Positions 1 through 38,657 of a stretch of DNA of 45,718 nt are shown in pieces. The notes under the pieces were generated by a model. That model saw only the letters and a program-made list of their open reading frames with translations. It ran no database searches and was not told where the DNA came from. Positions within the stretch are counted from its first letter, which is position 1, and every line of letters starts with the position of its first letter. The position numbers and the translations under genes are program-made. Source of the stretch: Elsinoe ampelina (taxonomy: Eukaryota); assembly GCA_010093995.1 (NCBI GenBank), contig ML992537.1, positions 1-45,718 of the forward strand, in the 5' to 3' direction.

Positions 1-490
1 GATTAATAAGGTTCTATATCTTAGTGTTTAATACTCTTATCTTAATAATATATAGCTAGCTAGCCTATTTAGCTAATATAGTAAGAATAATAGGTGTTCT
101 AGCTATTAAGGTGTTAGTATCTATAGTTGTTTATCCCTTTGTTAATACCTAAATCCTATAGTTATAGTTAAGGCAGTTCTTAACAGATTCTAATGCTTAA
201 AAAGCGAGATAGTAGAGAATTGACTAATAAATAGAGTAGGGAAGTAACTAAGTAATGTACTTATATAGGGGTAGTTATACTAGGCTTATAACTGTTAACT
301 TATATAGGGGAGGAAAAAGGATTAATTACTGCCTAATCTACTAAACTAAGGTAGATTATAACTATATAAATACTTAACCTAATGAATTAAGAGATAGATA
401 AATCAATAGAACTCCTAAGTAATAACAGATTAAGACAATAACTATCCAATTTGATCATAAATTAGTAGAGTAGTAGATAAGTGTTTAGTT
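1..490. repeat. RIP-degraded AT-rich repeat/transposon edge (family not identifiable)
   Basis: Very AT-rich with abundant TpA/TAG/TAA and almost no CpG or CpA. No ORFs. Composition grades back to about 50% GC near 490-560, the same texture as the RIPed Copia interior. Confidence 0.75.
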
Positions 491-1373
491 CAACCTTAGG
501 ATGAACTGAATCAGGGTCTTCTTGGCGCTCCAGCTTATACCTCGGTTGACAGGCATACCTCGGTAGCGTGGGGGCTTCCACGTGGGGGCTTTGACTTTGT
601 GCTCGAGCAACAATTTCTGTGTTCTGTGCACACCTGGAATCAACATTAATTCTTCAAAGAGCTGGGTATCCAACGCGAGCAAATGGTCAACTGAGGACCA
701 TCAAACGACGTCAGCCATGCCAACAATTGACCGGCAGCACGACAGTCGGAAGCAAGCAGATGTTTATTCACGATTGCACGAAAGCGGAAGTTTGCAAATC
801 TCACGTCATTGTGCCTGAGGATCCTGGCGCTTCCAGCTCCTCATGATCGGGAAAATAACCAAGGGAACACTGACAGCCACGTCAAGCCACTCATGCTCTT
901 GATCTCGGACTGCGCCATTTCGTCGTGTCGATCCGGCATGACATCCTAAGTGGTTCTCTGGGATCCATGGCAGACCAATCATGGAGCAAGCCTGTCTTTG
1001 ATGCCCATGCTCGCGTTTACCATTTCTGTACTGCCATCCAGGTTCTTCAGCCATGCCGCACGAGGGCTCGACGAGCGGCTTGTGAAGACGAGCATCTGGA
1101 AGCGAAGCAGAGATAGCTAAGTAAATGGACGTCAGAGCTTTCAGATTGCTTTTCCAGCAGTCATCTTCACACTTTGGGAGCTTCATCTATCCTGCTGACC
1201 ACACGGCTCCGCACCACTGCGAGATCACCATTCGCTTTTCATGACAGCCAGCACACGTCAAACTTATGACCATGAGGTGACTTGCTGCTAATCGTCTCCT
1301 CATATCTCACTCAATATACTTAATGTCTACTTCTATTCGACACCTCTCACGTTGACGCACCAGGATCATCACA

Positions 1374-3764: not shown

Positions 3765-6700
3765 ATGCCTTCGGTCGACAGGGAAGCCTCTCGCGACCGC
3801 GACCTGCGGCATCAACATTCATACTCGGAGTCTGGCCGCTTGTCGGTGCCCATGTAAGTCTTACTATCCATTCGTGCCGACCATGAAGGACAATGGGACT
3901 GACCAGAGTTCTTTCCAAACATAGGTGGGATAGCGCAGACCCAGACAGATGTCCACCACCTTTACCTATCCCTCCTGGATCACCCAGTCTTCAGACAAAG
4001 TCCAATGCATCCGCCGGTATACAAGCAGCTGCGAACAAGCTACACGAACGCGCCCGCGAAAGTCTCGGATCAGCTTACCTCGCAAACGCTTCCCCTTCAT
4101 CTTCACCCGAAAAGTCGCTCATCAAGGGCGCAGCACACAGGCGCATGCAGTCGGCGCATGCCTCGAATGGAAAGGACCTCAAATCTTACCTTGATGGTAT
4201 GCGATCAGGATCGCCGGAGCGCACGCCAGGAGCGGCAGCAGAATACTACTCGTCATCGAGCAGTCGACCGGATACACCTACCAGAGCTTCTGCGAAGCCA
4301 ATTCTAGGAGAGAACACACCGCCGTCTGCCACAATGCGAGCTCTACAATCTGCAGTGGTCAAGGACGACTCATTCCTTTCCGACATGACGAATGGAAGAA
4401 TCTCGAAAGGAGCCGATCCTGAAGTATCGGCACAGCTACTCAAACTTACCACAATCGCCACGAATCTGCAAACAGAAATGGCCGCCCTCAGCAGAAGAAG
4501 CAAGGACAATGCAGTGGATCTGCTCGGCCTGAAAGAAGCAGCCACGAAGCGTGACGAGGACATCAAGAAGAACATCAAGGACCTCATCACGAGCCCACAT
4601 CTCTATGGTCCTTCTTCTCCTAGCTTAGGAAGATCGGGTCACTTTGGACTTGGACTGCTCGACAGCAAGGCATACAGCTCACCACCTCCCATGCCGCGTG
4701 CAGCTAGCCACAACTCACTCATGGATGCCGGCAGTCCCTCACCGTACTCCGTCGAGGGTGCGGCTAGCGTGGCAATGCTGGAGAAGATCATCCGAGAGAT
4801 GGTCACCAAGGAAGGACAGGAACGTCTCCTCTCCACTCTTTCCGAACTCATGGATAAATCCAGCAAGATGTCGACAGAGGCAGTGACCAAAGTTGAAGAT
4901 CTGGCCGAATTCATCAAAGAGAAGCAGCGTGCGCAGGCACTCAACGCTGCTGCCTCCAGTAATGCACTAGTGCGCTCAGCATCACCTACTGAGCTACCAG
5001 CCGATCTCAAGACACTTCTCGGCAAGATCAAAGACAGCGTCACTTCCAACGGTGGCATGACCGCCGAGATCAAAGCGCTCATTCGTGAGTTGCGCGGCGA
5101 GATCCTCGGCATGGGTCGCGAACTTGGCCGCAAATTGGACCAAGTAGATCATTCGGCCACCAACTCTCGCTCTGCCACAGATGACCAAGCCTCACGAATG
5201 GAGATGCAGCGTGTCGTGAACCAGTCTGTCCAAGACTTGCGCGACCATATGGAGAATCTGATCCAGGAATCAGCCCGGCAATCGTCTGCTCTCGTACAAG
5301 CTCGTGGAGAGTCAAGCAGCGAAGACATGTACGCCGTTGTCAAGCATGCTTTGTCAGAGCATGGTGATGCGCTAGCAGTCAGCGCAGCACCCAACTTCGA
5401 TAAAGAAGAGATTCTATCTGCTGTGCGGACTGCTTGTGAGAACTTCAAACCTGAAATCGAACTGCAACAATACGGACTGGAGCGAGACGAGATCCTCGAA
5501 GTGCTCAAGGAAGGTCTGGATGAATACCGCGCCAGCCAAGAAGCAGTCGCAGCCTCACAAGTCAACAAGCAGGAAGTCTTTGACGCCATGCAAGAAGCTC
5601 TGCAATCTGTGCAACTCCCCAGCCCGATCCTGGACACTCATGCCATCAAAGCTGACATGCTCGCATCAATCAGAGAATGCTTGGAAGAATTCAAAGGCAC
5701 AAACCCAGCTCTGGGAGAGAACCCGCTGGACGACGGCGCTACACGAGAATTGATCAACAACGCCATCCGTACTGGTCTGGAAGAGCACTCCGACAAGACC
5801 CAACGTGTCATGGAGATTAGTCGCGACGATCTCTTCGACGCCGTCAAAGCCGGGCTGGACGGTTCAAGCATCCCCTTTGGTGGCTTCGGTGAGCAAGTAC
5901 TTCAGCAACTCCACGAGCTCGTAGACGGTATGAAGGTCGAATTCAAGCAATACTCGGCCGCCAACGGACGCGACACCGAGCAAGTCCTCGACGCAGTCAA
6001 GGATGGTCTTGAAGTGCTCCGTGGTCAGATCGAGACCTACGTCGACCGTGCGCAGGACGTCACCGGAAAAGACGAAATCATCGAAGTCGTCCGCACAGGA
6101 TTGGAGAATCTCCGGACGGATGTCCAAGGATTCGTGTCTGAAGGACCGAGTCACGGCAAGGGCGACTTGCTGGATTACATCAGGAGCGAGTTCGAGCACC
6201 TGCACGCTACCATTGGAGGGGATCCGCTAGATCGAAGCCGAGACCTCATGGGCGACAAGTCGGATATCCTGGCTGCTATCGAAGGCATGAGGTCTGAAGT
6301 CGGCGCCAGAAGTCTCGGATCAGAGGTCGGTGGTGAGTCGATGGAGAGTGTCAAGGAGGAAATCGCACATCTCCGCGATACCCTTGCACCACTGCTCATT
6401 AAGGTCGGTGCAGCTGCGGACAAGGACGAGATGCTAGCAACCATCAAAGAGGCCATCTCCGAGCTGCCTTCTCAGCCAGGAGGCATCAACACCGACGTCC
6501 TGGAGGCCATTCGCGGCGAGTTCGAAAACTTGCAGTCCACCGTCACAAGATCGAGCGGCGGCCGGGCAGACATGGAAGAAATGCTCGACACGATCCGTCT
6601 TGGTCTGGACGATTTACGCTCACACGTCGACAAAAGGACCGAGAATCCCGAGAAGCACATCCTAAACGGCGAAATCTTGGATGCGCTGAATGAGGGCCTG

Positions 6701-9700
6701 GACAATCTCCGTTCAGACGTAAACAAGACGCTGGAAAAGCCGGTCGATATGACGGTCACTTATGAGATCCTGGATACACTAAAAGAAGGCCTCGCCGGTC
6801 TCAGAGCGGACATGGACAAGCTTTCCTCTCGCGGCAGAGGCACTTCGCCTGTTGGAGATGCGATCGTGCTGGCCGACGCTTCAATCACGAGAGACGGACC
6901 TGACGGTGTCGCTGCGCCAGTCACAACAGACGGCCTGAAGAAAGACGACCTCGAGAAGATGGAAGTACTCCTCGCGCAACTTCAGATCAAGGTCGAGGCG
7001 ATGGATCGGAACATCCAGGATATGCCTGTGCCGGAGTCATCCGAGGGTGCTACCGCTGGAATCAATCCGGAGCAATTGGCTGGTCTGGAGAGCATGATCA
7101 AGGACGTCCAAAGCGCTGTGGCTGATATCGCGGCGAGAGAGCGAGCAGAGGTCGAAAATGCTGTGACCAAAGCTGACACCGACGCCATTGAAACACTGCT
7201 GAGGAACACAAAGTCTCAGATCGAAGAGCTGCGAATTCCTGGCGTCGAAGACTTGGCGACACGGGAGCAGAGCGATGCCGTCGAAGCCGTTGCGCGCGTG
7301 GCAAAGGAAGCCATTGATGCTCTGACCGCGAAAGTGGAGGAGAACGTCGCCACCAAAGCTGATGTCGCTGTTGTCGAAGTCCTGGCGTCGGACGTCAAGG
7401 CTGTGCTAGATGAGCTGAAAGAGAAGACGGGTGGTCTGGCTGAGGAGGAAGAGGCGAAGCGTCTGGTCAAGTCCGACATTGATGTCTTGGGCGTCATTTG
7501 CACCGAGATCAAGGACAAAGTGTCTGAGATGGTGCTTCCTGATGTCGACACGCTACCGGATAAGGCGGATGTCGAGCAGCTGCAGGGTCTGATCAATGAT
7601 CTTCGCGAAGCGCAGGAGAAATTCCAGGAGCAGTACGATAAGGATATCGGCGTCACTGCTCAGGCTTTTGATGATCGCCGCAAGGATACAGAGGAGATTG
7701 TTGGATCTGTCACCGCCATCAAGAGCTTGCTCGAGGAGTTCTCCCAGCAGGCTACTGATCGCGAGGAGAAGGATGATGGTCTCTTCGATGAGCTCAAGAA
7801 CAGTCTGACCGCTATCACCGAGAAGGTAGAGACGAACCCATCGATCGCCGAGGACGTCAAGGCTCTTGTTGAGACGGTCAAGACCGAATTCGAAAAGGCC
7901 ACTGCTTCTCTCGACTCCATCAAGACAGACCACGGCGATCAGCTGTCCTCACACGCCGAGAAGAGCACCGAACACAAGGATGCCATCATCGCTGATCTGT
8001 CGGCCAAGATCGATTTGCGCATGGATGAGCTAGTGGCAAAGTACATTGAGGCCCAGGCATCCGGGGAGGAGAAGGCTGCCGCGCAAGAAGAGCTTGTCAA
8101 GTCGACCAAAGATCTCGCAGACGAATTGAAACTCAGCATCGATACGCTCGGCACCGCCCTCACTGCATCCACGGCCGGCTTCAACGAATCCAGTGAAAAG
8201 CTCAGTCAAGAGAGCAAGACTGTCTTCAACCGCGTCGACGACGTGTTCAACAAGCTCGATGAAACGCAGACTGGTCTACAAGGTGAGCACGCAGCTACCC
8301 GCGATGAAGTGATCAAAGTTGGTGAAGGCGTGGCTGGACTCAGGGATGAAGTGGCCGAGAGCAACCCCAAGATCTTGATCGGCCTGCAGGAGCTCAAGGC
8401 GCTAGTCGAAGCACATTACGACCATGCAAAGACCACAGCGGGTGAGCACGCTGATGCTCTTCGTGGTATGGGTGAGAAGCACGAGAGCAAAGTCGGGGAG
8501 GTCATGACTGCTTTCTCAGCTGCGAGGGCATTGCCCGACACCGAAGACACGGGAACCAAGATCGACGAGTCGGCGCTTCATAAGAAGCTGGACCAGCTCT
8601 TGTCTCGCTCCGTCGAGGTGGGACCGGATACATCGGTACATGAGAAGCTGGACAAGTTGGCAGAGTCAGTCCCTGGCAACAACGCGGAGTTGCTCGAGAA
8701 GATCCACGCGTTCATGACCGCTTCCGAGGGGGAGGGCGAAGGCAGCAAGGCTGTCCAACTTGAGCGTCTGGACGCGATCCATGCCCAGATGATGGCCACC
8801 GCGGCAGAAGTCACTGCTTTTGTCGCGACACAGACGCAACGCATCAGCGACGAGCAGGACACCAGGGAGCGCGAAGCGGAGGAGCTCAGCAAGGTGATTG
8901 CACAGCGGGAGACGCGAAAAGAGGATCTCGAGGCGGACATCGACGTCTTGTCTTCCGACCGCGACGAGCTGCGCGGGGAAGTCGCTCGTTTCAGGGAAGA
9001 GAAGGAGGCATTGGGCCGGGAGAAAGCCAAGCTCGCCGCCGACGTGCACGCTCTGCACGCCGCCTTGGCGATCCGCAAGGAGGAACTCGCCGCCATGGAA
9101 ATGCGAGCTGACCAGCTCGAGCGCAGAGTCTTGGAGGGACTGATGGACCAGAGCCGCGCGGCCATGATCCGGTCCTCTGTCGCTGCCTCCTCCGCGGGGT
9201 TGGCAGGGAGGAACAAGACGCCGAAGACCAGTCCGCGCAAGAAGCCAATGCGGGATTTGAGGGTGGTTAGTGGCCAGAGTGACGCGAGTACGCTTAGCAC
9301 CGTCACGGCGCCGTTTAGTGCTGTGAGTAGCGTGGCGCCGAGTCTGGCTAGTTCGGTATCGGTCGCGGCGCAGGCGGTGGTGAGGCAGAAGGTTAGTCGG
9401 CCTAGTATGGCGCGGAATGAGAGGGGTGTGCAGGGGGCTGGGGCGGAGAGGCGGATTATGAGTTTGAGTCAGATCAGCCATAACGCGGGAGGCGGTAGCG
9501 CAAGGCAGAGCCTTGTTGGGTTGCCGGTTGTCAGTGCGCCGAGGCAGGGACTGGAGTCGTTGAAGAGAAGCCAAAGCGTGAGGACGAGTGGGCTGGGCGT
9601 GGGGAGGAAGAGTAGTTGGTCTGCAAGCGGGGCCGGGATCGCGAAGAGGGGTTTCACGCCTTTGGGGCTGAGCGTCATAGGGGACGAGGAGGGGGACAAG

Positions 9701-10312
9701 GAGAACGAGTTCGAGGATGCGGAGAGTAGGCGCACGAGCGCCAGTCGGGAGAGCAGCTATACCCCGACCGAGACCGGGAGCGTGATCACCGGCGACGACA
9801 GGTCGAGGTACAGCGAGAGTTTCGTCGAGTTCTCGGACGCAGGGAGTAGGCGGACCAGCGGACAGACCGTCACTGACAGCGAAGTATCGAGAGCCGAGAC
9901 CTTGGACGACGGGAGGAAGAGCGTCGACTCGGCCATGGCGAGCTTGATCGCTCAAGAAGTCCGGGAGCGCATCGCGGACGGGGAACTGGACGACGACGCG
10001 CGCACGGAGACGGATCTGGGTGTGGTGAGCAACGTCGGCACTGTCGACGACGACGGGGAAGCGGAGGCGGCGATCGTCATCGCGACACCGGTGGTGGATG
10101 AGGGTGCGGAGGATGGGCAGCTGGTTCTGCAGGCGGGCACGGCGAGTGTGGATTTTGCGTCGGGGAAGGGCAAGGAGGAGCAGGAGGATCGTAGGGGGTT
10201 CGTGACGCCGGCGGATAGTGGGTTGGGGAGCGATTTGCCTACGGCTGCGCTGGGGAGTGAGTTTGGGGGGTATTTCCCGAGGGCTGAGGCGGGTGGGGTG
10301 GGGGCGGAGTAG
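3765..10312 (+). CDS. Very large conserved fungal coiled-coil protein (often auto-annotated 'chromosome segregation ATPase family'); exons 3765-3853 and 3925-10312
   Basis: 2139-codon ORF. Intron 3854-3924 (GTAAGT...CTGAC...TAG) joins ...RLSVPM to WDSADPDRCPPPLP. Long acidic heptad-rich region with recurring segments (AVKAGLDG, AVKDGLE, ALNEGLD, TLKEGLA). No ATPase Walker motif seen. Confidence 0.85.
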
Positions 10313-10712
10313 GGGGTTTCGAGATGGAGGACTGAGGAGGAGTGGATGAGGGAAATGGGTATGGGTGGTCGACTTGTATAGTATTTCTCTTGGGGCCGCT
10401 GGGCGTATGATAGGTGACGAAGCCAATCGTTTGTTCTTTACTGTGTCTCATGGACGATCGTGAAGAGATGTGAATGTGACATTCAACGGCCTGTTACTCG
10501 AAGAAAACGCGTCGAGGATGTTCCATCTGGCGACACGTGAGGTTGAAAGAAAATTTGACTTCACGTCATCCACGACTTCAGACAAAATCAACCACCTCAC
10601 CGAGCAGCACCACCTTTGCAACGAAAGCATCGATATTTGACACATCGACGAGGAATTTTGGAGAGTGCCTGATGATCGGAATACTCCAGCCAGAACGACC
10701 GAATATGCCTTG

Positions 10713-12317
10713 ATGCTTCAATGCTGCTGGCGCATACAAGCACGATTTAGAGTCGTTGGCAAATATGCGAGGAACAGATACTTCGCTTCGCCTTCTATCG
10801 CCTTCGAACAGAACCGCCCAAGCATAAGTGATCATCAGGTCTGGTCTCGCTTCTCCAGCACTGCATATCCCCGATTCAAAATGGCAGAAGCAACGATGAC
10901 CCCGGTCGATCAGACCTTGCCCGGCGGCGGCGAGGCCAGCAGTACACAGATCGTGCCTATCGCACCTAGCAAACTGGGTGAATTCCTGGATGGCGCAAAC
11001 TGGCCGTCTCAATTACCGCTGGACGACTGGTCACTGGAGCTCTACGATACGGCTGATGCACGACATCTGGTAGAGGCCGCGCAATTACTTCGAAATTCTA
11101 CCATCCCCGTGGCTTTTCCAACAGAGACGGTATACGGCCTCGGTGCAGATGCTACCCGTTCCGAAGCAGTCAAGGGTATCTACAAAGCCAAACAGCGACC
11201 CTCGGACAATCCTCTCATCGTCCACATCGCCAGTCTACAGCAGCTGCGATGTCTCCTCCTCGGGTCCCGCTCGGCAACGAATCCATCGGTGTACGAGCCA
11301 TGCACGGATCCAATACCGGATATATACAAGCCTTTGATCGAGAAATTCTGGCCTGGTCCGCTGACGATACTCCTGCCTGTGCCCGAGAATTCGCCACTCG
11401 CGCCGGAAACGACTGCTGGTCTGGCTACGTTTGGGGCACGGATGCCGAGGAATCTGCTGGCGCTTGCTTTGATCAAGCTTGCGGATAGACCGATCGCGGC
11501 ACCGTCTGCGAATGCTTCTACGAAGCCATCTCCGACTGCGGCTGAGCACGTATATCATGATCTGGCCGGGAGGATAGAGATGATTGTGGATGGCGGACCG
11601 TGTCAAGTCGGGGTAGAGAGCACAGTGGCGGATGGGTTGGTCAGTCCGCCTGTTATTCTCAGACCGGGTGGTGTGAGTATTGGCCAGATCCGGGAGGTGA
11701 AAGGGTGGGAGAAGACGACGATCGCGTACGAGGATAAGGCGTTGATGGAGGGGAAGAAGGAAGGACCCAGGGCGCCGGGGATGAAGTACAGGCACTATAG
11801 CCCGAAGGCAAAGGTTATGCTTTTTGAGAGCGGGAGGGATTGTGGTATTGATGACCTGGCTGGTGCGGCGGGGTCGAAGAGACGGGTTGGTGTAGTTAGG
11901 ACTAAGAGGTGGAAGCAGATTGGAGTTGAAGAGAAGACGATCACCAATGGTCGGGTGGAAGCAGAGGACGGCACTACACATCTTGAATCGGTAGGAAAAC
12001 ATGTCAGGGAGCACAAAGCTGGGTTGCCTACCGACTCGCCCCTTGTGCAGATGCTGGCCGAACAGTCGCAGTATCAAGCCAGGCAGATCCACGAGGTTGA
12101 GCTGGCAACAGATGACGGTGCAATCATGGTCTTGGATATCAGCATCGGACCGGATACCATTGATATTGCAAGAGGATTGTTCTCCGCGCTGCGAGATCTG
12201 GACAAGAAGGATCTAGACGCTATCATCGTCGAGGGTATAGAAGATGGGAGCGGAGATGATGTTTCTGCAGCAGTCATGAACAGGCTGCGCAAAGCGGCGG
12301 AAGTAAATGTATTATAG
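10713..12317 (+). CDS. SUA5: Threonylcarbamoyl-AMP synthase (Sua5/YrdC plus SUA5 C-terminal domain); second in-frame ATG at 10881
   Basis: Motifs VAFPTETVYGLGADA, IYKAKQRPSDNPLIVH, FWPGPLTILL, AAPSANAS, GVESTV, ILRPGG, APGMKYRHYSP and AVMNRLRKAA. Confidence 0.95.
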   Translation: MLQCCWRIQARFRVVGKYARNRYFASPSIAFEQNRPSISDHQVWSRFSSTAYPRFKMAEATMTPVDQTLPGGGEASSTQIVPIAPSKLGEFLDGANWPSQLPLDDWSLELYDTADARHLVEAAQLLRNSTIPVAFPTETVYGLGADATRSEAVKGIYKAKQRPSDNPLIVHIASLQQLRCLLLGSRSATNPSVYEPCTDPIPDIYKPLIEKFWPGPLTILLPVPENSPLAPETTAGLATFGARMPRNLLALALIKLADRPIAAPSANASTKPSPTAAEHVYHDLAGRIEMIVDGGPCQVGVESTVADGLVSPPVILRPGGVSIGQIREVKGWEKTTIAYEDKALMEGKKEGPRAPGMKYRHYSPKAKVMLFESGRDCGIDDLAGAAGSKRRVGVVRTKRWKQIGVEEKTITNGRVEAEDGTTHLESVGKHVREHKAGLPTDSPLVQMLAEQSQYQARQIHEVELATDDGAIMVLDISIGPDTIDIARGLFSALRDLDKKDLDAIIVEGIEDGSGDDVSAAVMNRLRKAAEVNVL

Positions 12318-28022: not shown

Positions 28023-28849
28023 GGCTAGAGGATTAGTGGTGAGATGATCTGGTAGGGGCTGTGTCTGGTAGGCACAGGGAAGAGGTGGGTTGTATACGCA
28101 GGAGATTGATGATGAATATATACAAAAAGTCGACTTGCACGTTTGGAGATACTGTACCGGTGTGTACTCACATCAACATTGAAACCCTGCGAGCATGTAG
28201 ACATGATGCAGTGAGTGGAATCTCTCATCCTTGATTGGCTTGTGAACGACAAGCGAAAACAAGCTTCTTCGAGAAGTCTTCGTATGCAGCAACGTGCGGC
28301 TTATCGGCATGCTTGAGAACGAGAAGTTCGTACCTAGAGCCAATCAGAATGCGAGTATCCCGCGGCCACAGCAAGGCTCCACGAAATCGGTGCTGGCCTC
28401 TCATCAATGCGCTGATTCATCGGGTCTGATTATTCTGCTGCCTGTCGTCGCCAATGCCGTTCATTTGTTCATGTCGGATGGGTGCTTGGCGGCAACAAGT
28501 TCGCGCCGTGTAGTATGGCAAGTGACTTCCAGTAAGTTATCTATCCTCGGATTGCCGACTGACAAAGTTGATCTTGCCAGTGGAGACATTCCATTCATCG
28601 ACAGCGACTTGGCAGGCAGTGCATTACGATCTTGATCAGGAAGGATGGAAGTACTTGATGCACTGCGCCTCCGGTCGTCGTGGTTTAAGGTAGATCACTG
28701 GATATAATATTCCCAAATTTGTGTGACTGCTGCCTGAGGTTCCTTGTCAGCAACAAGCATTTAGGGCAGTCGTGCTCTGATCGGCTCAGGGTGACGATAG
28801 GATCTCGGGAACATTTGATAGAGTTTCATTTAGCGGAGGAGGTTGTGCA

Positions 28850-28989
28850 TGTTGTACTTGGCAAATCGGATCGAGAGACGTGTGTTTCATTCAGAGAGTT
28901 ACAATAACCGATTATCTACTGTGCGTGTGCTGACTCATCGGTACCAGTCCTTTAGTACCAGAGAAGCTGTACCAGCTTGAGTTATAACA
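28850..28989 (-). repeat. 3' LTR of the Copia element
   Basis: Direct repeat of 35518-35657 with 4 transition differences. Abuts the polypurine tract. Confidence 0.97.
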
Positions 28990-29000
28990 CTCCCCCTCTG
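28990..29000 (-). other. Polypurine tract (CAGAGGGGGAG on the minus strand)
   Basis: CTCCCCCTCTG on the plus strand, immediately inside the 3' LTR. Confidence 0.85.
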
Positions 29001-29310
29001 GTATAGATTGTTGAAGCTGAAGAACTGGCCTGTCACATGTGACTAAGGTGATTAGGTTATCACCTCATCTCATATGCTTACTTATGATTGTCAGTTTAAG
29101 CCAATCATTGGTGTTAATTCACCTCTGAATACTTGTGAAAGGTTAGTAACAATGGAAGCCTTTGACAATAGCTAGGCATCCATTGTTCATGTGAATAGTC
29201 TAGCTTATAAATCTCCATCAAAGAAGATATAAATAACCAGCTAGTCTCCTTATGATTTCTCTTTCCTTTATTACACTTACAGCAATAGCCTCCTCTTTTA
29301 CACTAATTTA

Positions 29311-30430
29311 ATAGCTTCTAATACATCAGTTAACTTCTTTAACTATGCTTAACTCCCTTGCATAAGTTCCACTAGGGATAGGGTTGTCCTGACTAAGGCT
29401 TAGATCGTTATTGTCTTTAACATAATAAAGAGAGTTATTAAGTCACGTAGCCTTGTAATTTCTATAAATAGCATCATTAGTGTCTCCTTCTTCCTCTGCT
29501 CTTTAAAGAAGTCTAGAGCGCTTAAGAGACTCTCTAGTCTAGCTTAGACTCCACATGTTAAGGCTTTTACTAATAGAGATAGAGCTTATAATATAGTAGT
29601 TGCTATTAACATAACTAAGGCTAATAAGCTTATTAACATTAGCACTAGGACTTCTACTAACAAGTACTACTTGCTAGCTATCTTAATACATTATGCAAGG
29701 GGTAGAACTATCTATTTAAACCTAACCTGCTGCAATGTTAAGATTGCTAACGGCACTTACATCTTAAAGACTTTCAAGACTTGTATAACGTTCTAGCAGA
29801 TTTATAGAGGTGCCTACACTAACTATATATACCCTAATAAGCGTAACAAGTGTAACTTCTAGTCCTAAACTTCTAAGGATATCTTCTTCTAGAGCTAGGG
29901 TCTCTCCCTAAAGAAGACTACTTAGCCTTTAACTCCTGCTAGTCCATCTACTCTAACTAGTCCCCTAGGTGGTTTATCTTATAGTCGTCGCCCTTCTACT
30001 GCTAGCTTTGCTTCTAGAGTGACTAGAAAGATTTCTATGGACCTAATTAGAGACACTAATGTCCTAAGGCTAAGGCAGGCTAAGGACAAATACTTTATTC
30101 CTACCCTAGCTCTAGCTAGATTCAAGCTATAGGATCCTAGCACTTAGGCTAGATTTGTAGCTAAGTTCAGGGACTATACTAACAATTATGACTTAATCTA
30201 GAGGAAGCTAATAAGGGGTGACAGTGTAGTTAGGCTATAGATGTATAGGTAGGGCTTAGAGCTTAAGGAATAGGAGGGGATTCTAAGGAGCATGTCTAAT
30301 ATAAGCTTGTCTCTAACTCCTGAAGGGACTCTGCCAACTACTAAGTCTAGTAGTAACAAGAGAAAGGGGAAGAAGAGGAGTAGTTCTAAGTCTAACTCTA
30401 AGGGCTCTCCGTAGAAGAAGAAGTAGGCTC
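29311..30430 (+). pseudogene. RIP-disrupted extra ORF antisense to gag-pol, with a DUF3716-like Cys motif (ends approximate)
   Basis: One plus-strand frame reads ...LAILIHYARGRTIYLNLTCC...KTFKTCITF*QIYRGAYTNYIYPNKRNKCNF. Reversing TpA to TpG gives YGGAC(T/A)NC. A Ser/Pro linker and a basic tail KRKGKKRS...KKK follow. Confidence 0.65.
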
Positions 30431-30725
30431 ACTTAATAGGCTATAGTAGGTGGATTAAAGGCGGCCTTAGTGGCTTAGGATAGTGGATAGTAAAGGTGTT
30501 ATAGCAGAGGATAGTAGATTAAGCTTAGGCTTAAGCAGCTAGTAATGTAGTAGAGATAGCTATTTCCTTTCTCTCTTTTTAATAGTGAAGTAGTAAATAC
30601 TACTTATAAGCTTTCAACAAATGAGATAGCTTAATAAGTGTAATAGTATAGCATCATGCTTTAAATAACAATACAAATGAAATCTAAACGAGTGTACAGT
30701 GCTAAAGAGCACCAACTAACTAGCC

Positions 30726-33700
30726 TTATAATTAGTGAAGGATCTTGTTAGGAGACTTAGGCTTAGTAAGTGCATTAGCTAATTACTTAGTTGTGTTAAT
30801 ATACTCTAGCTTGATAGTACTAAGCTTATGTTGCTCCCTATAGTAGTGGTTCCTTAGATTGACATACTTTGATCTTCTTAAGTTAGTGTAATCTTTAGCT
30901 AGCTTAATAGCTGACTTGTTGTTAATAAAGATCTTAACTAGGCTAAGGTTAATGTTAGCAAGGGGCCTAAGTTCAGTAACTAAATTTCTAAGCTAATTAA
31001 CTTCTCTACAGGTCTTAGTTAATGTAAGATACTTAGCTTCTGTGCTTGATAACACTATAACCTTCTAGAGTCTTAACTTCTAGATGATAGGTGTACTAAG
31101 TATATAGATGATAGTCCTAGTAGTTAATCTTAAGGTCTTATTATCACTAGCAAAGTCAGAGTCTAAGTAGGCCTAAATAGTGTTACTAAGGGAGCTATTA
31201 GTCCTCTTAAAGGTAAGGCCATAATTAATAGTCCTATTAATATATCTCTAGATCTACCTACCTGTAACAACATAAGCTACTAAAGGATTTTATAGGAATC
31301 TAGCCAAGTGATTAGTAGTATAGCTAATATCTGGCCTTGTATTGTTAGCTAGATACTATAGCTTACTAATAATCATATTAAACTTCTAATAGTTATTAGC
31401 ATTAACCTAGCCATGATTTAGTCTATAGATCTTGTTAATAGGATACTTAACTATTCTTGTATAGAGAAGGTTATAACCTTTAAGCTTTTCCCTAGCATAG
31501 TATAATTGCTTAATCTTGATTATATCCTTAGTTCTATAGAGTTAGACACTAAGGAAGAGGTTAGAGTTTACAACCTTTATAGGGAATTTGGCATAAAGAT
31601 CTTAAACTAGCTTATTAGCATGTTTCTGCTAAGTAGCAATAATTCTAAAGTTATCTACATATACTAACATAATGCAGAACTTACTAATAAAGAGACATAT
31701 ATTACTCTCTGACCTAGTAAAGCTAAGTAACTTAAGAGCTTTAACAACAGCCTTATACTAGAGAGCTACTGCTTGCTTTAGGCTATAGAGTCCCTTTATG
31801 AGGATAATAAGCTTGTTAGCTAAGTCTTTAATTAGGACTCCCTTAGGGCAGTAGATGTAGTTCTTAAGATTAATGTCTGGCCTAAGGAATACAGTAATTA
31901 CATTAGCTGTTATAATTACCTAGTTGTAATAGAGGGCATATGCAAGAATAACTCTTCTAGTTTCTGCTCTTAGTGTTAGAGTAAAGGTCTTAACAAAGTT
32001 AATGCTAGCTCTTTGTGTAAAGCCTCTAGCTGTCTATCTAGTCTTAAACTTATTAATAGAGCTATCTAGTAGCCTCTTAGTCTTAAATACCTATTTTCTA
32101 GTTATTGGTCTACATCTAGCTAGGGCTTAGGATCTCTTAATGATCTTAAAGGTTCTAGTCTCTATTAATAAGTCAAACTTAGCCTTTATTGCAGCTTTCT
32201 AATGTTTAGCCTTAGGGCTTAAAAGGGCTTCTTTTATAGTTTAAGAGTCTAGCCTAAAGGTATTAGAGGATCTGCCTCTAGTAATAGTAGCAGCATTCCT
32301 AATTACCCTGCTAGAATTGAGTGTTCTATAGTCTATCTAACGATGTAATCTTAGTAATCTTCTAACTAATCTTACTAATAATAGTAGAGGTGATGTTAAT
32401 CTCCTCCTTTTTCTAGTGACAGGAGTTGTATAGAATAGTGTTATAAGTATATTAACATCCTCTATAGTTGTTAGTATAAGTAGTTAGTTAGCCATGTGTT
32501 TAGGTAGGTCATATGTTAAGTAAGACTCTCCTAGTACTTCTAGTAGGAGTATAGTAAGATCTTCTATAATATAATCTTTAGTAGGAGGCTCTAATTAAGG
32601 CTCCCCCTAATCATTAGAGGGCTTAGATTAAGGCTCCTCCTGTTCTTAGATAGGATAAGGTAATTAGAGTAGAGTTTAAGCTTCAACTTAGGGGTTATTA
32701 CTTCCTAAGGAAGGGTCTTTAGCCTAAGTGTTGTGGAGGTCTTATTGAAATTAATAATCTAAGGTTTCTAGATTCTTATAACTGAATTGTGTGTTGTTTT
32801 GTCTAATAAATGTCTGCTCCCCCTAAAGCTGTAAAGCCTTAGGTCTAGCAGTCTATAGATTCTTTGTCCATAGGATATATAGTTGTTTAAGAGGCATATA
32901 AGACTAATCTAGATATGTGAGGTCTTTATTAAATGTAATATAAGGAGTAGTAAAGAACCTGTTCTTCTATTTACCCTTAGTTTAATACTAGTATAGTTGC
33001 TATATCAGATAGTTAGTAGTAGAATTTCTTTGTATTCTAACATGCTATCTAAGCTAAGCTCTTGCTTAGAACTTGTATAATCTTAGGACATTATAATTAT
33101 AGACATATACTCTATATCTAAAGCGTCTAATGTGTGATACTAAGATAGGATTAGTAGTAATCTTCAGGTCTTTATTAAGGACCTAGAGTAGTATCTTCTT
33201 AGTTTTAGTGTAAGTAGTTCTATTAATGACATAGATAGCAAATTTAATAACCAGATTCCAGAATTCTAGGGGAATCCTATAGTCAATAAAGATGTATCTT
33301 GTCCTTATAATAACAACCTTATTAGTTGATTCTACTCCACTATTCTAGTAGTGGGTATATAGTGATAAGATATTCTATCTCTAAGTATAATACTAGATCT
33401 GTGCTCTAAGCTTAAGGCTAGAGAATTCACTACCTCTATTAGATATCTAGATAAAGGACACCTTATTATAGGCATTCTTATTGTATATATAAGTATACTC
33501 AATGAACTTGATTACTTTATCCTTAGTCACAAGGGGACTAAAGCTCTTAAAGTTACTCTTTCTATAGGTTATAAAGATGTTATACCTATAGCCTTAATAT
33601 GACTGTGGTTTAATTAGCCTAACTAGGTTAATATAAAGCTTATCTAGTAAGTAAGCTAGTAGTGTTCTTAGTTCTCTTAACACAACTCGTTATACCTTTA

Positions 33701-35315
33701 AAACCGAGCATAGAATACAGTGCCTAAGTTCAGATAATAAGAACTCTTCTATTCTAGTAGTAAGGTTCTTTGTGTATGTCATTGCTACACTTCTAGGGTG
33801 ACTAAGCCTTTAGTGCCATCTCTAAGATGTTACTTTAGTAGTTCTAGCTATAGCTAGATTTGCTGTAATAAAGCTTAGGTCCCTTTTAAGGGTAGAAGAC
33901 TTGTATATGTATGTGTTATTATTGCTCTTATAAACCTTAAAGTCTTAAAGCCACTTAACATCTCTATCTGCTTTAAGAGTTTCTACTTCTTTGTTGTCTT
34001 TGTTAAGGAGTTAAAGCCTGACAGCTTTAATGCTATTCTTCTTTAAGACTTTACTATTAGAGATAAGATTATAGGGAGATAAAGGAGAATAGATGCAATT
34101 AATAAGAGTAATTGTAGTCTTCTTACTAGCCTTATTTAATAGGGTCAGAACTATAGTTCTAACCTCTATGTTAATAAGGCTTTAGGTTCTAAGTGCCTAA
34201 TTAAGTTTAAGGCCCTTCTTTGTAGTGTAGATGTCTATAAACTATGACTTGTTATTGATGAAGTGTCTTGATGCTCTAGAGTCCTAGATAACATTAGATC
34301 TCTTTATCTTGCTATTTAATAAGGACGTAATGACAGTAGCTTAGCTATTGCTATAGATAAAGTCTTTATTATTATGTTTATTAGATTCTCCCCCCTTAGG
34401 TTAAGTATTATCCTCTACTGCTAAGTAGCCTTTTGCTTTAGATAACTTCCCTTTAGTTTTGCCTTTAGAGTTATTCTTAGTCTTATTATTGCTCTTAGCC
34501 TTCTTATCTCTCTTGCTACTCTATCCTTTAGGGGCCTTTTTAGGATGCTGCTTATAGCAGTTAGCATTTGAATAGGCATGGTAAGTGCATTAGGTATATT
34601 AGTCTTTAATGTAACCTATAGCTCTAAATGCTATGTTATTTCTTCTATTAAGGGGTAGTCTTTCTCTCCTTAGAGAGGCTATTATTACCTTAAGTAGTAT
34701 ATCAGAATTAAGTATAGATCTCTAATTCCTAAGCTATTTAGCCCCCTTAGTGCCCATTACAAAGAGTGTTATAATATAGGAATTAGGGAGGCTATAAAAG
34801 TGTGCCACTTAGCTAACAGTAAGAGCCTTTTACTTAGCTACAATGTTGTATTAGTAAATACACTTCTAGAAGTCTTTATAGTACCTTAGAGTGTCATTGT
34901 TAAAGGGAAGCACTACTTAATAGAGCTTCCTAATGGATTAGTGGAGTTTATATACTACTATTAGCTTAAATGTAGCCTTAATAGTCATAATAAGGTCCTT
35001 TACAGTCTTTAGAGTAGTCCTATAATAAGGTCTAACTAACTTATAAAGCCTAGATATAATAACACTATATGCTATTCTGTCTGACTTTTGCTATTCCTTG
35101 ATCTTGACTTTGTATATAGCGCTTGTCTTACTACCTTTAAACTTGATTAGATTAGGCTTTAGCTTCTTATCTACCTAGTTAAGGTTATTAAACATATAAC
35201 TAATAACATCTTTCTTAATAAGGGTAACCTCTAGAGTTAATCTCTAGGCATTGTAGTTGCTTCCTCTCTTGAGTATTTAGGTTTTATAGACTTTGCTTAA
35301 GCCTTCTAAAGACAT
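30726..35315 (-). pseudogene. RIP-disrupted Copia gag-pol polyprotein
   Basis: Motifs with RIP reversions in brackets: ATG at 35315 then GSNYNA[W]; zinc knuckle [C]T*CTYHA[H]SNANC (~34555-34600); protease [W]DS[G]ASRH (~34265-34290); integrase WH*RL[G]HP (~33795-33820) and S[DG]GSEF (~33425-33445); RT ARGFTQ (~32015-32030), KGLY[G]LKQA (~31770-31797) and YVD[D] (~31650-31662); RNase H Y[S]DSDFA[G]D (~31145-31170), K[H]V[D]LR and A[D]ALTKP. Confidence 0.93.
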
Positions 35316-35500
35316 AGTAATTAGCTAGAAGGCGATAGATAGTTGCTTTTAATTGGTTTGTTAAGCTGTTTAATAAAGGATAAATGCAGGCTACTACAGG
35401 TGTTTGTCCCAATGCAGCTAGTCCAGAATTTGGTGTAGGTTGATAATTCTTTTTGATAATGACACGCTTAATTTGCTATAGATTCGAGTGCTTTAAAGAA

Positions 35501-35517
35501 GCGCCGGGCTCATAACC
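35501..35517 (-). other. Primer-binding site complementary to the anticodon arm of initiator tRNA-Met (GGTTATGAGCCCGGCGC)
   Basis: Directly adjacent to the 5' LTR. The plus strand reads GCGCCGGGCTCATAACC, i.e. the tRNAi anticodon stem-loop with CAT. It is not a TGG-type 3'-end PBS. Confidence 0.85.
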
Positions 35518-35657
35518 TGTTGTACTTGGCAAATCGGATCGAGAGACGTGTGTTTTATTCAGAGAGTTACAATAACCGATTATCTACTGTGCGTGTGCTG
35601 ACTCATCGGTACCAGTCCTTCAGTACCGGAGAAGCTGTACCAGCTTGAGTTACAACA
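35518..35657 (-). repeat. 5' LTR of the Copia element
   Basis: 140 bp with perfect terminal inverted repeat TGTTGTA...TACAACA, followed by TSD GTGCA. Confidence 0.97.
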
Positions 35658-36405
35658 GTGCAACCCCGGCAAGATCCAATCCGGTCGGTACAGCTCCCCG
35701 CGATTTCGCGCTTGTTTCGTGAATCATGTTGTGCACCTTGTACGATTCCGGGCCAAAGGGCAATGTCTCGACCGTCGTCATCAGACAAGCAATGAGACAT
35801 GCATTGTTAATCAGGTAAGTACATTCAAGCTTTCAAGACAGGTGGAGAGAATAAGAGAGATCTCGTACCTGTATATTTTGGTTGAGACATGGGATGTGCA
35901 TAATCTTTAAGCTTTCTTTATGCAACGCTTCGGTCACTATAAACGATTCCATCACGAGACGGATCATCTCCCGTTATGTCTGCTCAGAAATTACAAAATC
36001 ATCAGAGAGGATGTGGTTGCCTGAGTTATTCATATATCTCAGCAAAAGCACAGTCGCCGGAGACGCGTGGCAACTGTGGCAGATCCACGAGCAGCCGTCA
36101 GGTCCAGGTACTAGCGCCGGCATTGAGGTCCAGTAACTGTGATGGAGCCATCGGTGGCACAGGATGCACGACGTAACGTGCTAGAGGCCATGTTCCAGGC
36201 ACACCAGATAAACGAATGAAAATTGGGGCGAACCGGACGGATGAAGGCGGCATGCACGTGCCAAGAAATCTCCCAGAGCCCCGAATCGGGCCCATTCGCC
36301 CCCGTTTCATCAACACCGCCGTCTCATCATCTATTTTCGACAGCGTCCAATGCGTCCTATATCATCACCACTCGCGCACGACGGAATCGTGCACAACATG
36401 CATCG

Positions 36406-37702
36406 ATGCCGCGAAAACCACACAAAAAGTCGAGATTTGGCTGCGCCAATTGCAAGAAGCGTCACCAAAAGGTATGTCAATCCCTGGCTCATCGATTTGC
36501 AATGCGATGCCATACCGCCATTGGACACCACTGATTACCTTCAACAGTGTGACGAGAGTAGACCGACATGTGTCAATTGTCGTACTGCCGGGACGGAATG
36601 TTCATACCTCCTCCCCAGCAGTATCAGTAGGAGATCTGGCAGTGCGGTAGCCCAAAACTCTCGAGATTCGTCCGAGAACAATACTCCAACATCGCAAACA
36701 ACTTCTCCTGCCGTCGCTTCTGGGTCGGTGGCCTTCCCTGACCGGACAGCTAGCATTACCGACCTTAATCTTGCACACATGGAGCTATTCTACCGATTCC
36801 TTCAAAACCCCGAACTAAGTTTTGGACTCGGTCTGGAACACCCCGAAGAAGGCCTGCGCCTCCTGATCAAGAATGCGTTCAAGAGTCGCTACCTGATGAG
36901 CCTTATTTTAGCAGTCACTTCCATCAGGCAGGCCATCGACGAGCCGCATCGACATGTAGACCTGTACCAGCAATCCATGGAATTGCTGGACAGCGGTTTA
37001 CGTGAATTGTACAAGGAAACCGAGACGATCACAGAGTGCAATATCGCCCCAATATTCATGGCCTCTTCCATCACAGGCATCTACATGCTTTGCGACACCT
37101 TCATCATCAAGCATGACGAGCCACCTGCAATCTTTCTTGACCGCATCATCAACACCATCAAGGTCACCCGGGGAGCTCGAGCCGTCATGGACAATGGCGC
37201 CTGGATGTTACTGGCAAATTCCGAGATCCGACCCATGCTGGGCTTTGACCTCCAAGAACCAATGAAGATTGACGAGGGTGAGGAGCACGAGAATTTCAGC
37301 AAACTCTTCGATTTGATCAAATTATCGGCATTACCAGAAGACGAACGGGCTGCGTGTGATGCGGCTGTACAGCAACTTCTGAGAAGTTTTGGCTCGAAAT
37401 CGAATGTGCCCCATTTGCGGCGAGCGTCGAGGTTTCTCCGTGGCCGGGCATGGCCAGTCACCACTAGCCCCCTGTATGTCGACATGCTCAACCGACGAGT
37501 ACCCGAAGCACTTGTCATATTGGCGAACTGGTCCGTCCTTCTTCACCAAATATCCGACGTGTGGCAACTTGGGGAAGCATCGTCATTACTGATGAGCGCT
37601 GTCGGTCCAGCACTTGGCCATGAATGGAATAGCTGGTTGGAATGGCCGCGAGAGTTTATTTCAAGACCGAGGATGAACTCGGCTGCTACGACACCTGCAT
37701 GA
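36406..37702 (+). CDS. Zn2Cys6 transcription factor, Upc2/Ecm22-like fungal class; exons 36406-36471 and 36548-37702
   Basis: MPRKPHKKSRFGCANCKKRHQK|CDESRPTCVNCRTAGTECSY across intron GTATGT...CTGAT...CAG. Also HMELFYRF, YLMSLILAVTS, AWP...RRVPEALVILANWSVLLH and WLEWP. Confidence 0.92.
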
Positions 37703-37776
37703 TCCTTTTTACGATACCCAAAATATACTTCATTCTGGTTTCCACCTCTTGGCTCGTCATCATCTCATCAGCCATA

Positions 37777-38657
37777 CTAATGTATGGTGAAACCGCCGCT
37801 TGTTGTAAAGCCACCATCAATCCTGACGTCTCCACCAGTGATCATACCGCTCTCGTCTTTGCACAAGAACTCGATGACACCGGCCACCTCTTCCGGCGTC
37901 ACGAACCTGCCAGCAGGTATTCTTGCAAGATGGTCATCCCTTTGCTTGCCTTCACTCCACGCCTTCTTCCCCAGCGCCGTCAGCGCCACTGTCGGGCTTA
38001 CTGTATTGGCAGTCACACCCTCTCTCCCCCACTCATTGGCTTGACATCTGGTGAGGCCATTCAATCCCGCCTTTGATGCACAATATGCCCCGTGGCCATC
38101 AAGAGCAAGATGTGATGCCTGACTAGAGATTGACACTATCCGGCCTGGCGGAGGCGTACTGCCTTGATCTTTGGCGACAGCTTTTCTCGACTTGTACAAC
38201 CTGTACCAAGCATTCGAGACAAGCAATGGTCCTAACAGATTGGGGAGAATGTTCCTTCTTGCCTCCTCAAGAGACGTCTCCTCAAGCGGCTGCACAGAGA
38301 CGTAGCCGGCAGCATTGACCAAGATGCTCGGAAAGGCTGGATGCGAACCACGTTCCGAGTCTCGACCGATTGCTGCAAAGGTAGACTGAATTGACTCGTC
38401 AGAGGTGATATCGCACTCGTAGGCACGAACGTCGGGAGGTGATGTGGAGCCGAACGTCGAAGTCAAGACTTCGTCCTTGCGTGGAGTCTCGAAGGGCGCA
38501 TACAACAGCGCTATGCGGGCAGAGTTCCGCCGCAGAGCAAGAGCTGTAGCAGATCCAAGGCCACCTTTGAATGTCAGTCAAGATTCAATGAGCATTCGTG
38601 TACAGAAAACATACCAAGCCCGCCAGCTATCACGGCGAGACGACCACTGAATGCCAT
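37777..38657 (-). CDS. Short-chain dehydrogenase/reductase similar to D-threitol/galactitol dehydrogenase (DthD/GolD type); exons 38657-38615 and 38564-37777 (276 aa)
   Basis: MAFSGRLAVIAGGLG|GLGSATA across intron 38565-38614 (GTATGT...CTGAC...AAG). Also LVNAAG, SSQA, catalytic YCASK, SPTVALTALGKKAW, IPAGRF and MITGGDVRIDGGFT. Confidence 0.9.

Follow-up and report, generated by a model that had tools for sequence, protein, structure and literature searches.

Antisense additional open reading frames that lie between pol and the 3' LTR (aORF-3R) have been described in plant LTR retrotransposons, namely gene23 of maize Grande and the corresponding ORFs of rice RIRE2, Silene Retand and Phaseolus PvRetro13 (PMC7264820). 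Among fungi, Boty of Botrytis and Sclerotinia carries an antisense extra ORF after pol (PMC7264820, PMC8365987), which the same papers cite under the name brtn (Boty/BcGypsy1 of Botrytis cinerea and Sclerotinia), and unnamed extra ORFs are drawn for other Botrytis LTR families (PMC8365987). The proteins encoded by antisense additional ORFs are described as matching nothing, as nuclear in some cases and as having no known function (PMC7264820, PMC8365987), and nuclear localisation has been reported for the Grande antisense product (PMC7264820). In Zymoseptoria tritici, the IS3EU-like DNA transposon REP9, whose integrase is Copia-like, carries the passenger genes REP9-1 and REP9-2, which encode DUF3716 proteins (PMC8232023). 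Extra genes of LTR retrotransposons are seldom annotated, and the fungal cases that we met in print are brtn of Boty and the unnamed Botrytis ORFs (PMC8365987). A survey of fungal Copia elements (PMC5445492) has none of the six wordings for antisense or additional ORFs that we looked for, and a literature search retrieved no paper on antisense ORFs in fungal retrotransposons by that wording, nor one on an Elsinoe Copia element with RIP.

We analyzed a window of 45,718 nucleotides from Elsinoe ampelina (GenBank assembly GCA_010093995.1, contig ML992537.1, positions 1 to 45,718 of the forward strand) and identified a Ty1/Copia insertion on its minus strand (28850-35657) that is complete (LTR pair, 5-bp target-site duplication, primer-binding site and polypurine tract) and RIP-destroyed. 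The features of the insertion, including those of a plus-strand frame located between pol and the polypurine tract, are the following:

28845-28849, minus strand: 5-bp target-site duplication, 3' side, read directly as TGCAC on the minus strand, with the identical 5 bases beyond the other LTR
28850-28989, minus strand: 3' LTR of 140 nt (TGTTG...CAACA), a direct repeat with 97% identity to 35518-35657
28990-28999, minus strand: polypurine tract, read directly as AGAGGGGGAG on the minus strand and adjoining the 3' LTR
29152-30429, plus strand: putative relic of an antisense additional ORF, delimited from stops, shuffles, codon model and stop-density boundary
29695-29859, plus strand: Cys/Tyr-rich cluster ARG...CC...FKTC...YRGAYTNY...CNF in the translation, possibly the relic of a small metal-binding domain
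29932-30021, plus strand: Ser/Pro/Thr-rich linker in the translation
30358-30423, plus strand: basic Lys/Arg/Ser tail KRKGKKRS...KKK in the translation, NLS-like by composition only
30738-35315, minus strand: RIP-degraded gag-pol in a single frame with 82 stops in 1550 codons, recognized from Pfam domains and an intact relative
35506-35517, minus strand: primer-binding site adjoining the 5' LTR, direct read
35518-35657, minus strand: 5' LTR of 140 nt, forming a repeat pair with the 3' LTR
35658-35662, minus strand: 5-bp target-site duplication, 5' side, direct read

The insertion has the TG...CA LTR pair, 5-bp duplication, primer-binding site and polypurine tract of an LTR element, together with the RVT_2-type reverse transcriptase, upstream integrase region and single polyprotein frame of Ty1/Copia. 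Pfam searches of the minus-strand pol frame returned, in this order, Pol_BBD (residues 370-454, E-value 5.4e-4), gag_pre-integrs (residues 511-563, E-value 0.037, below the cut-off) and RVT_2 (residues 1095-1320, E-value 7.6e-27), and the frame aligned to an intact Copia polyprotein of 1459 residues (P0003) with 43% identity (E-value 4.6e-120). The primer-binding site looks complementary to what we take to be the anticodon stem-loop region of the initiator tRNA-Met and not to the 3' end of the tRNA, an arrangement that we liken to that of Drosophila copia. LTRs, 5-bp duplication, primer-binding site, polypurine tract and an integrase placed before RVT_2 are common to this element and to canonical fungal Ty1/Copia elements (polyproteins P0003-P0006); unlike them, the present element has a spacer after pol, which we measured at 1.74 kb from the end of pol (~30738) to the polypurine tract (28990-28999), in agreement with the roughly 1.7 kb from RNase H to the polypurine tract given in an initial annotation of this DNA. 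The element is the sole AT-rich island in its surroundings (~28900-35700, GC 0.31-0.40 vs 0.50-0.64), with an extreme RIP index (TpA/ApT of 1.79 vs 0.55 in the flank) and a (CpA+TpG)/(ApC+GpT) ratio of 0.69 vs 1.28 in the flank. In the genome's own sequencing run, differences between copies were RIP-type transitions at 243 of the 248 places tallied by change type. No further copies of the element were found within the window.

The plus frame running through the spacer reads as initially annotated, with about 370 codons broken by TAG and TAA stops: from 29311 to 30429 it comprises 373 codons and 17 stops, while a longer read starting from the sole intact in-frame ATG at 29152 comprises 426 codons and 20 stops (17 TAG, 3 TAA and no TGA). 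This amounts to a stop density of 4.6%, similar to that of the RIPed pol frame (82/1550, 5.3%), and the other five frames of the segment contain 37, 66, 26, 23 and 66 stops. Stops occur in the frame at about 1 per 30 codons as far as 30430 and at 5-6 per 30 codons beyond it, an approximately five-fold rise, and upstream of ~28980 the frame is shut by a TGA in the un-RIPed LTR. We then generated 1000 dinucleotide-preserving shuffles of the segment, each scored by the best of its six frames: 17 stops or fewer were obtained in none of them (mean 29.7, minimum 18). We also trained codon tables on the RIPed pol in its coding frame, its two shifted frames and its three antisense frames, and compared the six readings of the segment, a model which presumes that the extra gene shared the codon usage of pol. 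With this model the antisense frame scored +34.1 nats over 373 codons and +41.2 nats over the 426-codon read, against -34 to -102 nats for the five other readings (-34, -66 and -93 for the three minus-strand readings). No shuffle out of 1000 reached 34.1 (maximum 24.8), held-out pol chunks of equal length scored +24 to +65 nats in their true frame and negatively in all others, and the antisense frame scored positively in each half of the segment (+18.2 and +14.6 nats).

Because the stop density matches that of pol, shuffles fail to reproduce it, the codon model picks out this frame and strand, and stops jump after 30430, we conclude that a real gene, antisense to gag-pol, very probably left the plus frame as its relic. 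This bears out the central proposal of the initial annotation, that a formerly coding antisense frame occupies most of the spacer between pol and the polypurine tract in a Copia element whose other parts are canonical. It lies, as a relic holding 17-20 stops, where an aORF-3R is found, between pol and the 3' LTR and on the strand opposite gag-pol. Dead frames that ORF finders miss can be recovered by training a codon model on the RIPed pol of the same element. The start and promoter signals that had been proposed along with the frame, an ATA GCT at 29311 derived from ATG GCT and a TATA-like word at 29228, do exist in the sequence, but neither goes beyond chance: the former is one among many ATA codons that were possibly once ATG and is indistinguishable from the others, and the latter (TATAAATA) constitutes no evidence because the 6528-nt internal region contains 16 occurrences of TATAAA over both strands (9 plus, 7 minus). 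Directly past the Cys cluster, five stops of the frame fall within 30 codons (29842-29931), a stretch that may once have been an intron or a linker rich in Gln/Trp.

The explanation that best accounts for the whole is that the segment is the RIP-killed remnant of an extra protein-coding gene of a Ty1/Copia element, located antisense in the spacer between pol and the polypurine tract, which we consider moderately probable. It brings together a complete insertion, with TGCAC on both sides and the pol domains in one minus-strand frame, and a plus frame of ~370-430 codons ending at ~30430 that behaves statistically like a former ORF, with a pol-like stop density and a score of +34.1 nats beyond the reach of shuffles. 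Since such a gene sits inside the reverse-transcribed unit, it would have travelled with the element. It would have needed its own promoter, either within the 160-320 bp beside the 3' LTR or in the 3' LTR read backwards. The predicted product would comprise a small cluster rich in Cys(/His), a linker of Ser/Pro type, a C-terminal half that is probably helical, and a basic tail, a make-up that would suit a nuclear nucleic-acid-binding regulator, most likely one whose target was the expression or integration of the element itself, and the antisense transcript would in addition pair with the element's genomic RNA. In the present copy, the gene and the entire element are dead.

Precedent in plant elements and in Boty argues for the same explanation (PMC7264820, PMC8365987). 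With the plant aORF-3R, the relic shares its position between pol and the 3' LTR, its antisense orientation, the lack of similarity to known proteins and the need for a promoter of its own (PMC7264820). The plant ORFs are described as kept in most copies and transcribed (PMC7264820), whereas the relic belongs to a fungal Copia element, is known from one dead copy and has no sequence similarity to anything. It resembles brtn in being an antisense extra gene past pol of a fungal LTR retrotransposon (PMC7264820), a likeness by description only, and Boty is a Ty3/Gypsy element whereas the present one is Ty1/Copia. As antisense ORFs at this position are already on record from plants and from Boty, the statement of the initial annotation that canonical elements encode only gag-pol appears too strict (PMC7264820), and the relic is probably a further case of this known layout, here in a fungal Copia element. 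A Copia example would show antisense accessory genes arising in both fungal LTR superfamilies, and an intact copy, if one exists, would offer a handle on the role of such genes.

To see how the segment is represented elsewhere in the genome, we summed contig depth along the element, a measure that differs from copy number and in which copies are counted at a likeness of at least 80%. Summed depth was 620-850 over 29332-30551, against 313-328 in the single-copy flanks, 550-790 at the gag end, 5000-12055 in some pol bins and 28893-38138 in the LTRs. At about twice the depth of the flanks, the segment seems to be covered by at least one further copy (likeness of at least 80%), as is the case for the least-covered half of gag-pol, which again favors a gene that belonged to the element. 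Among the variant positions listed, none falls inside 29021-30586. A neighboring stretch comprising the 3' end of pol and ~190 nt of the spacer (30552-30795) had a summed depth of 12055 vs 633 and 1995 on its two sides, and many copies seem to share it at a likeness of at least 80%. Sequencing runs guessed to be RNA covered the LTR only, with the exception of one contig of 151 nt at 29165-29300 (run X6, depth 2), which has 23 differing letters and one gap and represents a diverged copy of the sequence immediately upstream of 29311.

We then searched for relatives of the frame and found none at an E-value threshold of 0.001 among 1,835,955,588 representative sequences (phmmer). A word-index search scored 7991 candidates without any at E<=10, and no chain among PDB sequences matched the frame. 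These results weigh against an extra gene of the element, all the more as the equally RIPed pol reaches an E-value of 1e-120: it retains 180 of the 313 columns that are invariant across four intact pol relatives, so that the lack of any whole-protein relative is informative. Had there been an annotated parent gene, or an accessory ORF as conserved as pol, these searches should have brought it up. The four closest intact polyproteins lie on contigs of 5581, 6717, 5217 and 5072 nt, in which 1204, 2229, 561 and 548 nt remain next to the gene; with 548-1204 nt available, three of the four probably have no 1.3-kb ORF, though these contigs may be fragments. Viral contigs yielded 3 loci with unrelated integrases only. 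Metagenome contigs yielded 78 Copia loci, among which the only close one (L004, 50% identity) ends inside pol and has no 3' part. The pol end was matched in 53 metagenome loci, including 13 with at least 600 nt downstream that together hold 68 ORFs of at least 90 amino acids, none of them similar to the frame: the best E-value was 3.4 when comparing the frame to all 68 ORFs (blastp) and to all 81 loci (tblastn). Pfam detected no DUF3716 in the 10 of the 68 ORFs submitted to it. From this sequence comparison, the extra gene looks lineage-specific.

The same data bear on whether the segment might instead be a one-off passenger, that is, a fragment of a host gene or a piece of another element captured before RIP in this copy and a near-duplicate, and not a gene of the Copia family. 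We regard this as rather unlikely. It would fit the short contigs of the closest intact pol relatives, the lack of the ORF in all related Copia loci examined, and the depth of the segment, which lies at the floor of the range seen across the element. The gag end lies at the same floor (550-790), so the segment does not stand out by its depth, and no parent gene was found in the 1.84 billion representatives, which include the annotated proteins of the same species. The segment itself has no convincing terminal inverted or direct repeats and no flanking duplication that would signal a nested element, and the frame has no similarity to transposon proteins in Pfam searches of the whole read and its pieces. 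Its RIP level is as extreme as that of the remainder of the element (TpA/ApT of 2.24 vs 1.79, and 0.55 in the flank). The ORF, convergent with pol, takes up the spacer neatly. These traits agree better with an extra gene of the element itself.

The identity proposed for the product was DUF3716 (PF12511), from the Cys pattern RG...C...F..C...GACANC...C, which we likewise take to be that of the family. The strings on which the proposal was built (LAILIHYARG-x8-CC, FKTC, YRGAYTNY-x8-CNF, a Ser/Pro stretch and a KRKGKKRS...SPxKKK tail) are all present in the translation. Numbered on the 426-codon read, the cluster comprises Cys 193, 194, 211 and 234 and Tyr 188, 203, 218, 222, 225 and 227. Four of the six Cys fall within 47 residues (permutation p = 0.05), as do 10 of the 28 Cys and Tyr taken together (p = 0.017); the Cys/Tyr cluster is real and its significance modest. 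We searched Pfam with a 533-residue read carrying X at stops and with five sub-pieces of it, and obtained no match to PF12511 at E<=10, the whole read matching no family at this threshold and the sub-pieces returning chance-level rows only (Pox_A32, E-value 0.081; Alpha-amylase_C_2, E-value 1.6). A regular expression of a Cys motif matched nothing in the metagenome and viral loci or in the window, and Rfam gave no match to the segment at E<=1. AlphaFold2, run without an alignment, produced a model without confidence (mean pLDDT 31.3, pTM 0.15). The Pfam and AlphaFold check suggested for this identity thus brought no DUF3716 when applied to the read of this copy, and the proposed family assignment was not recovered by any of these searches, whose power is low.

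How low can be gauged from pol. In the intact polyprotein P0003, Pfam scores were 136 bits for RVT_2, 49.2 for SH3_retrovirus, 44.9 for Pol_BBD, 37.7 for rve and 32.2 for gag_pre-integrs, all above the cut-off, while in the RIPed copy they dropped to 94.9 for RVT_2, which alone remained above the cut-off, 20.7 for Pol_BBD and 14.3 for gag_pre-integrs. Both rve and SH3_retrovirus were undetected by Pfam in the RIPed pol, though once necessarily present, and a domain such as PF12511, whose profile has 59 positions and a cut-off of 22 bits, could therefore vanish likewise. Because known pol domains were also lost, the Pfam miss is weak evidence against DUF3716, and profile searches on RIPed DNA in general have little power for small domains.

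We used the invariant pol columns to calibrate the changes that the DUF3716 reading requires. The initial annotation had undone TpG>TpA changes in YRGAYTNY to obtain GGAC(T/A)NC, which takes three reversals of Tyr to Cys. At invariant columns, Cys was changed to Tyr in 1 of 6 cases and His to Tyr in 6 of 13, and of the 20 Tyr found there in the copy, 10 were originally Tyr; the reversal is thus permissive and is not favored by this calibration. The Arg-from-Gly step does fit, as Gly was changed to Arg at 11 of 30 invariant Gly.

That the relic is a DUF3716 zinc-binding nuclear protein serving as an accessory factor of the Copia lineage is accordingly a tentative prediction, which we find doubtful. 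A 55-residue stretch with 4 of the 6 Cys and 6 of the 22 Tyr comes near the length of the PF12511 profile, the Gly>Arg changes needed are common in the copy, and the Pfam miss weighs little; on the other side, neither the 533-residue read nor its five sub-pieces returned PF12511, the match leans on an assumed family pattern and on free conversion of Tyr to Cys, and Tyr at invariant pol columns came from Cys once, from His six times and from Tyr ten times. Transposons with DUF3716 passenger genes are already known (PMC8232023), and one member has been reported as the orthologue of a Neurospora telomeric-sequence binder (PMC10776026), which would fit a nuclear DNA binder. REP9-1 and REP9-2 share with the relic that they contain Cys, have no known function and are borne by a fungal mobile element with a Copia-like integrase, and differ in that REP9, as a class II element, has TIRs (PMC8232023) whereas the relic lies in an LTR element and gave no DUF3716 match. 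These papers make the DUF3716 idea plausible and are not a test of it. It is more doubtful still that a Dothideomycete Copia lineage carried an antisense gene for a putative DUF3716-type, Cys-rich nuclear DNA-binding protein. If true, this would make DUF3716, together with the REP9 genes, a recurrent accessory module of fungal mobile elements of the integrase type, and such a protein could serve target choice, given the telomeric-binder orthology, or self-regulation.

Finally, it is very improbable that there was no gene at all and that the frame arose by chance in non-coding DNA under RIP or only mirrors an ORF of the sense strand: although RIPed DNA abounds in TA words, every stop in the frame is trivially revertible, antisense pol frames are also stop-poor in places (4-6 per 100 codons) and the AlphaFold model lacks confidence, the shuffles attain neither the stop count nor the score, the minus-strand readings are all negative and the 3' boundary at 30430 is sharp.

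Some further observations concern the LTR and the surroundings of the element. The 140-nt LTR is scarcely RIPed, and in summed contig depth it exceeds the single-copy flanks about 100-fold (28893-38138 vs 313-328); a short LTR may escape RIP owing to its length. LTR-only contigs, including one with a solo-LTR-type joint (28897>35610), are present in the runs guessed to be RNA, and solo LTRs or further copies seem numerous in the genome. The first 560 nt of the window (1-560) form a second AT-rich, RIP-like stretch with no similarity to the Copia element. A Zn2Cys6 transcription-factor gene at 36350-37702, which is 100% identical to an annotated Elsinoe ampelina protein, has the element ~690 bp upstream, and since the low-GC zone extends to ~36000, the upstream region of this gene may be affected.
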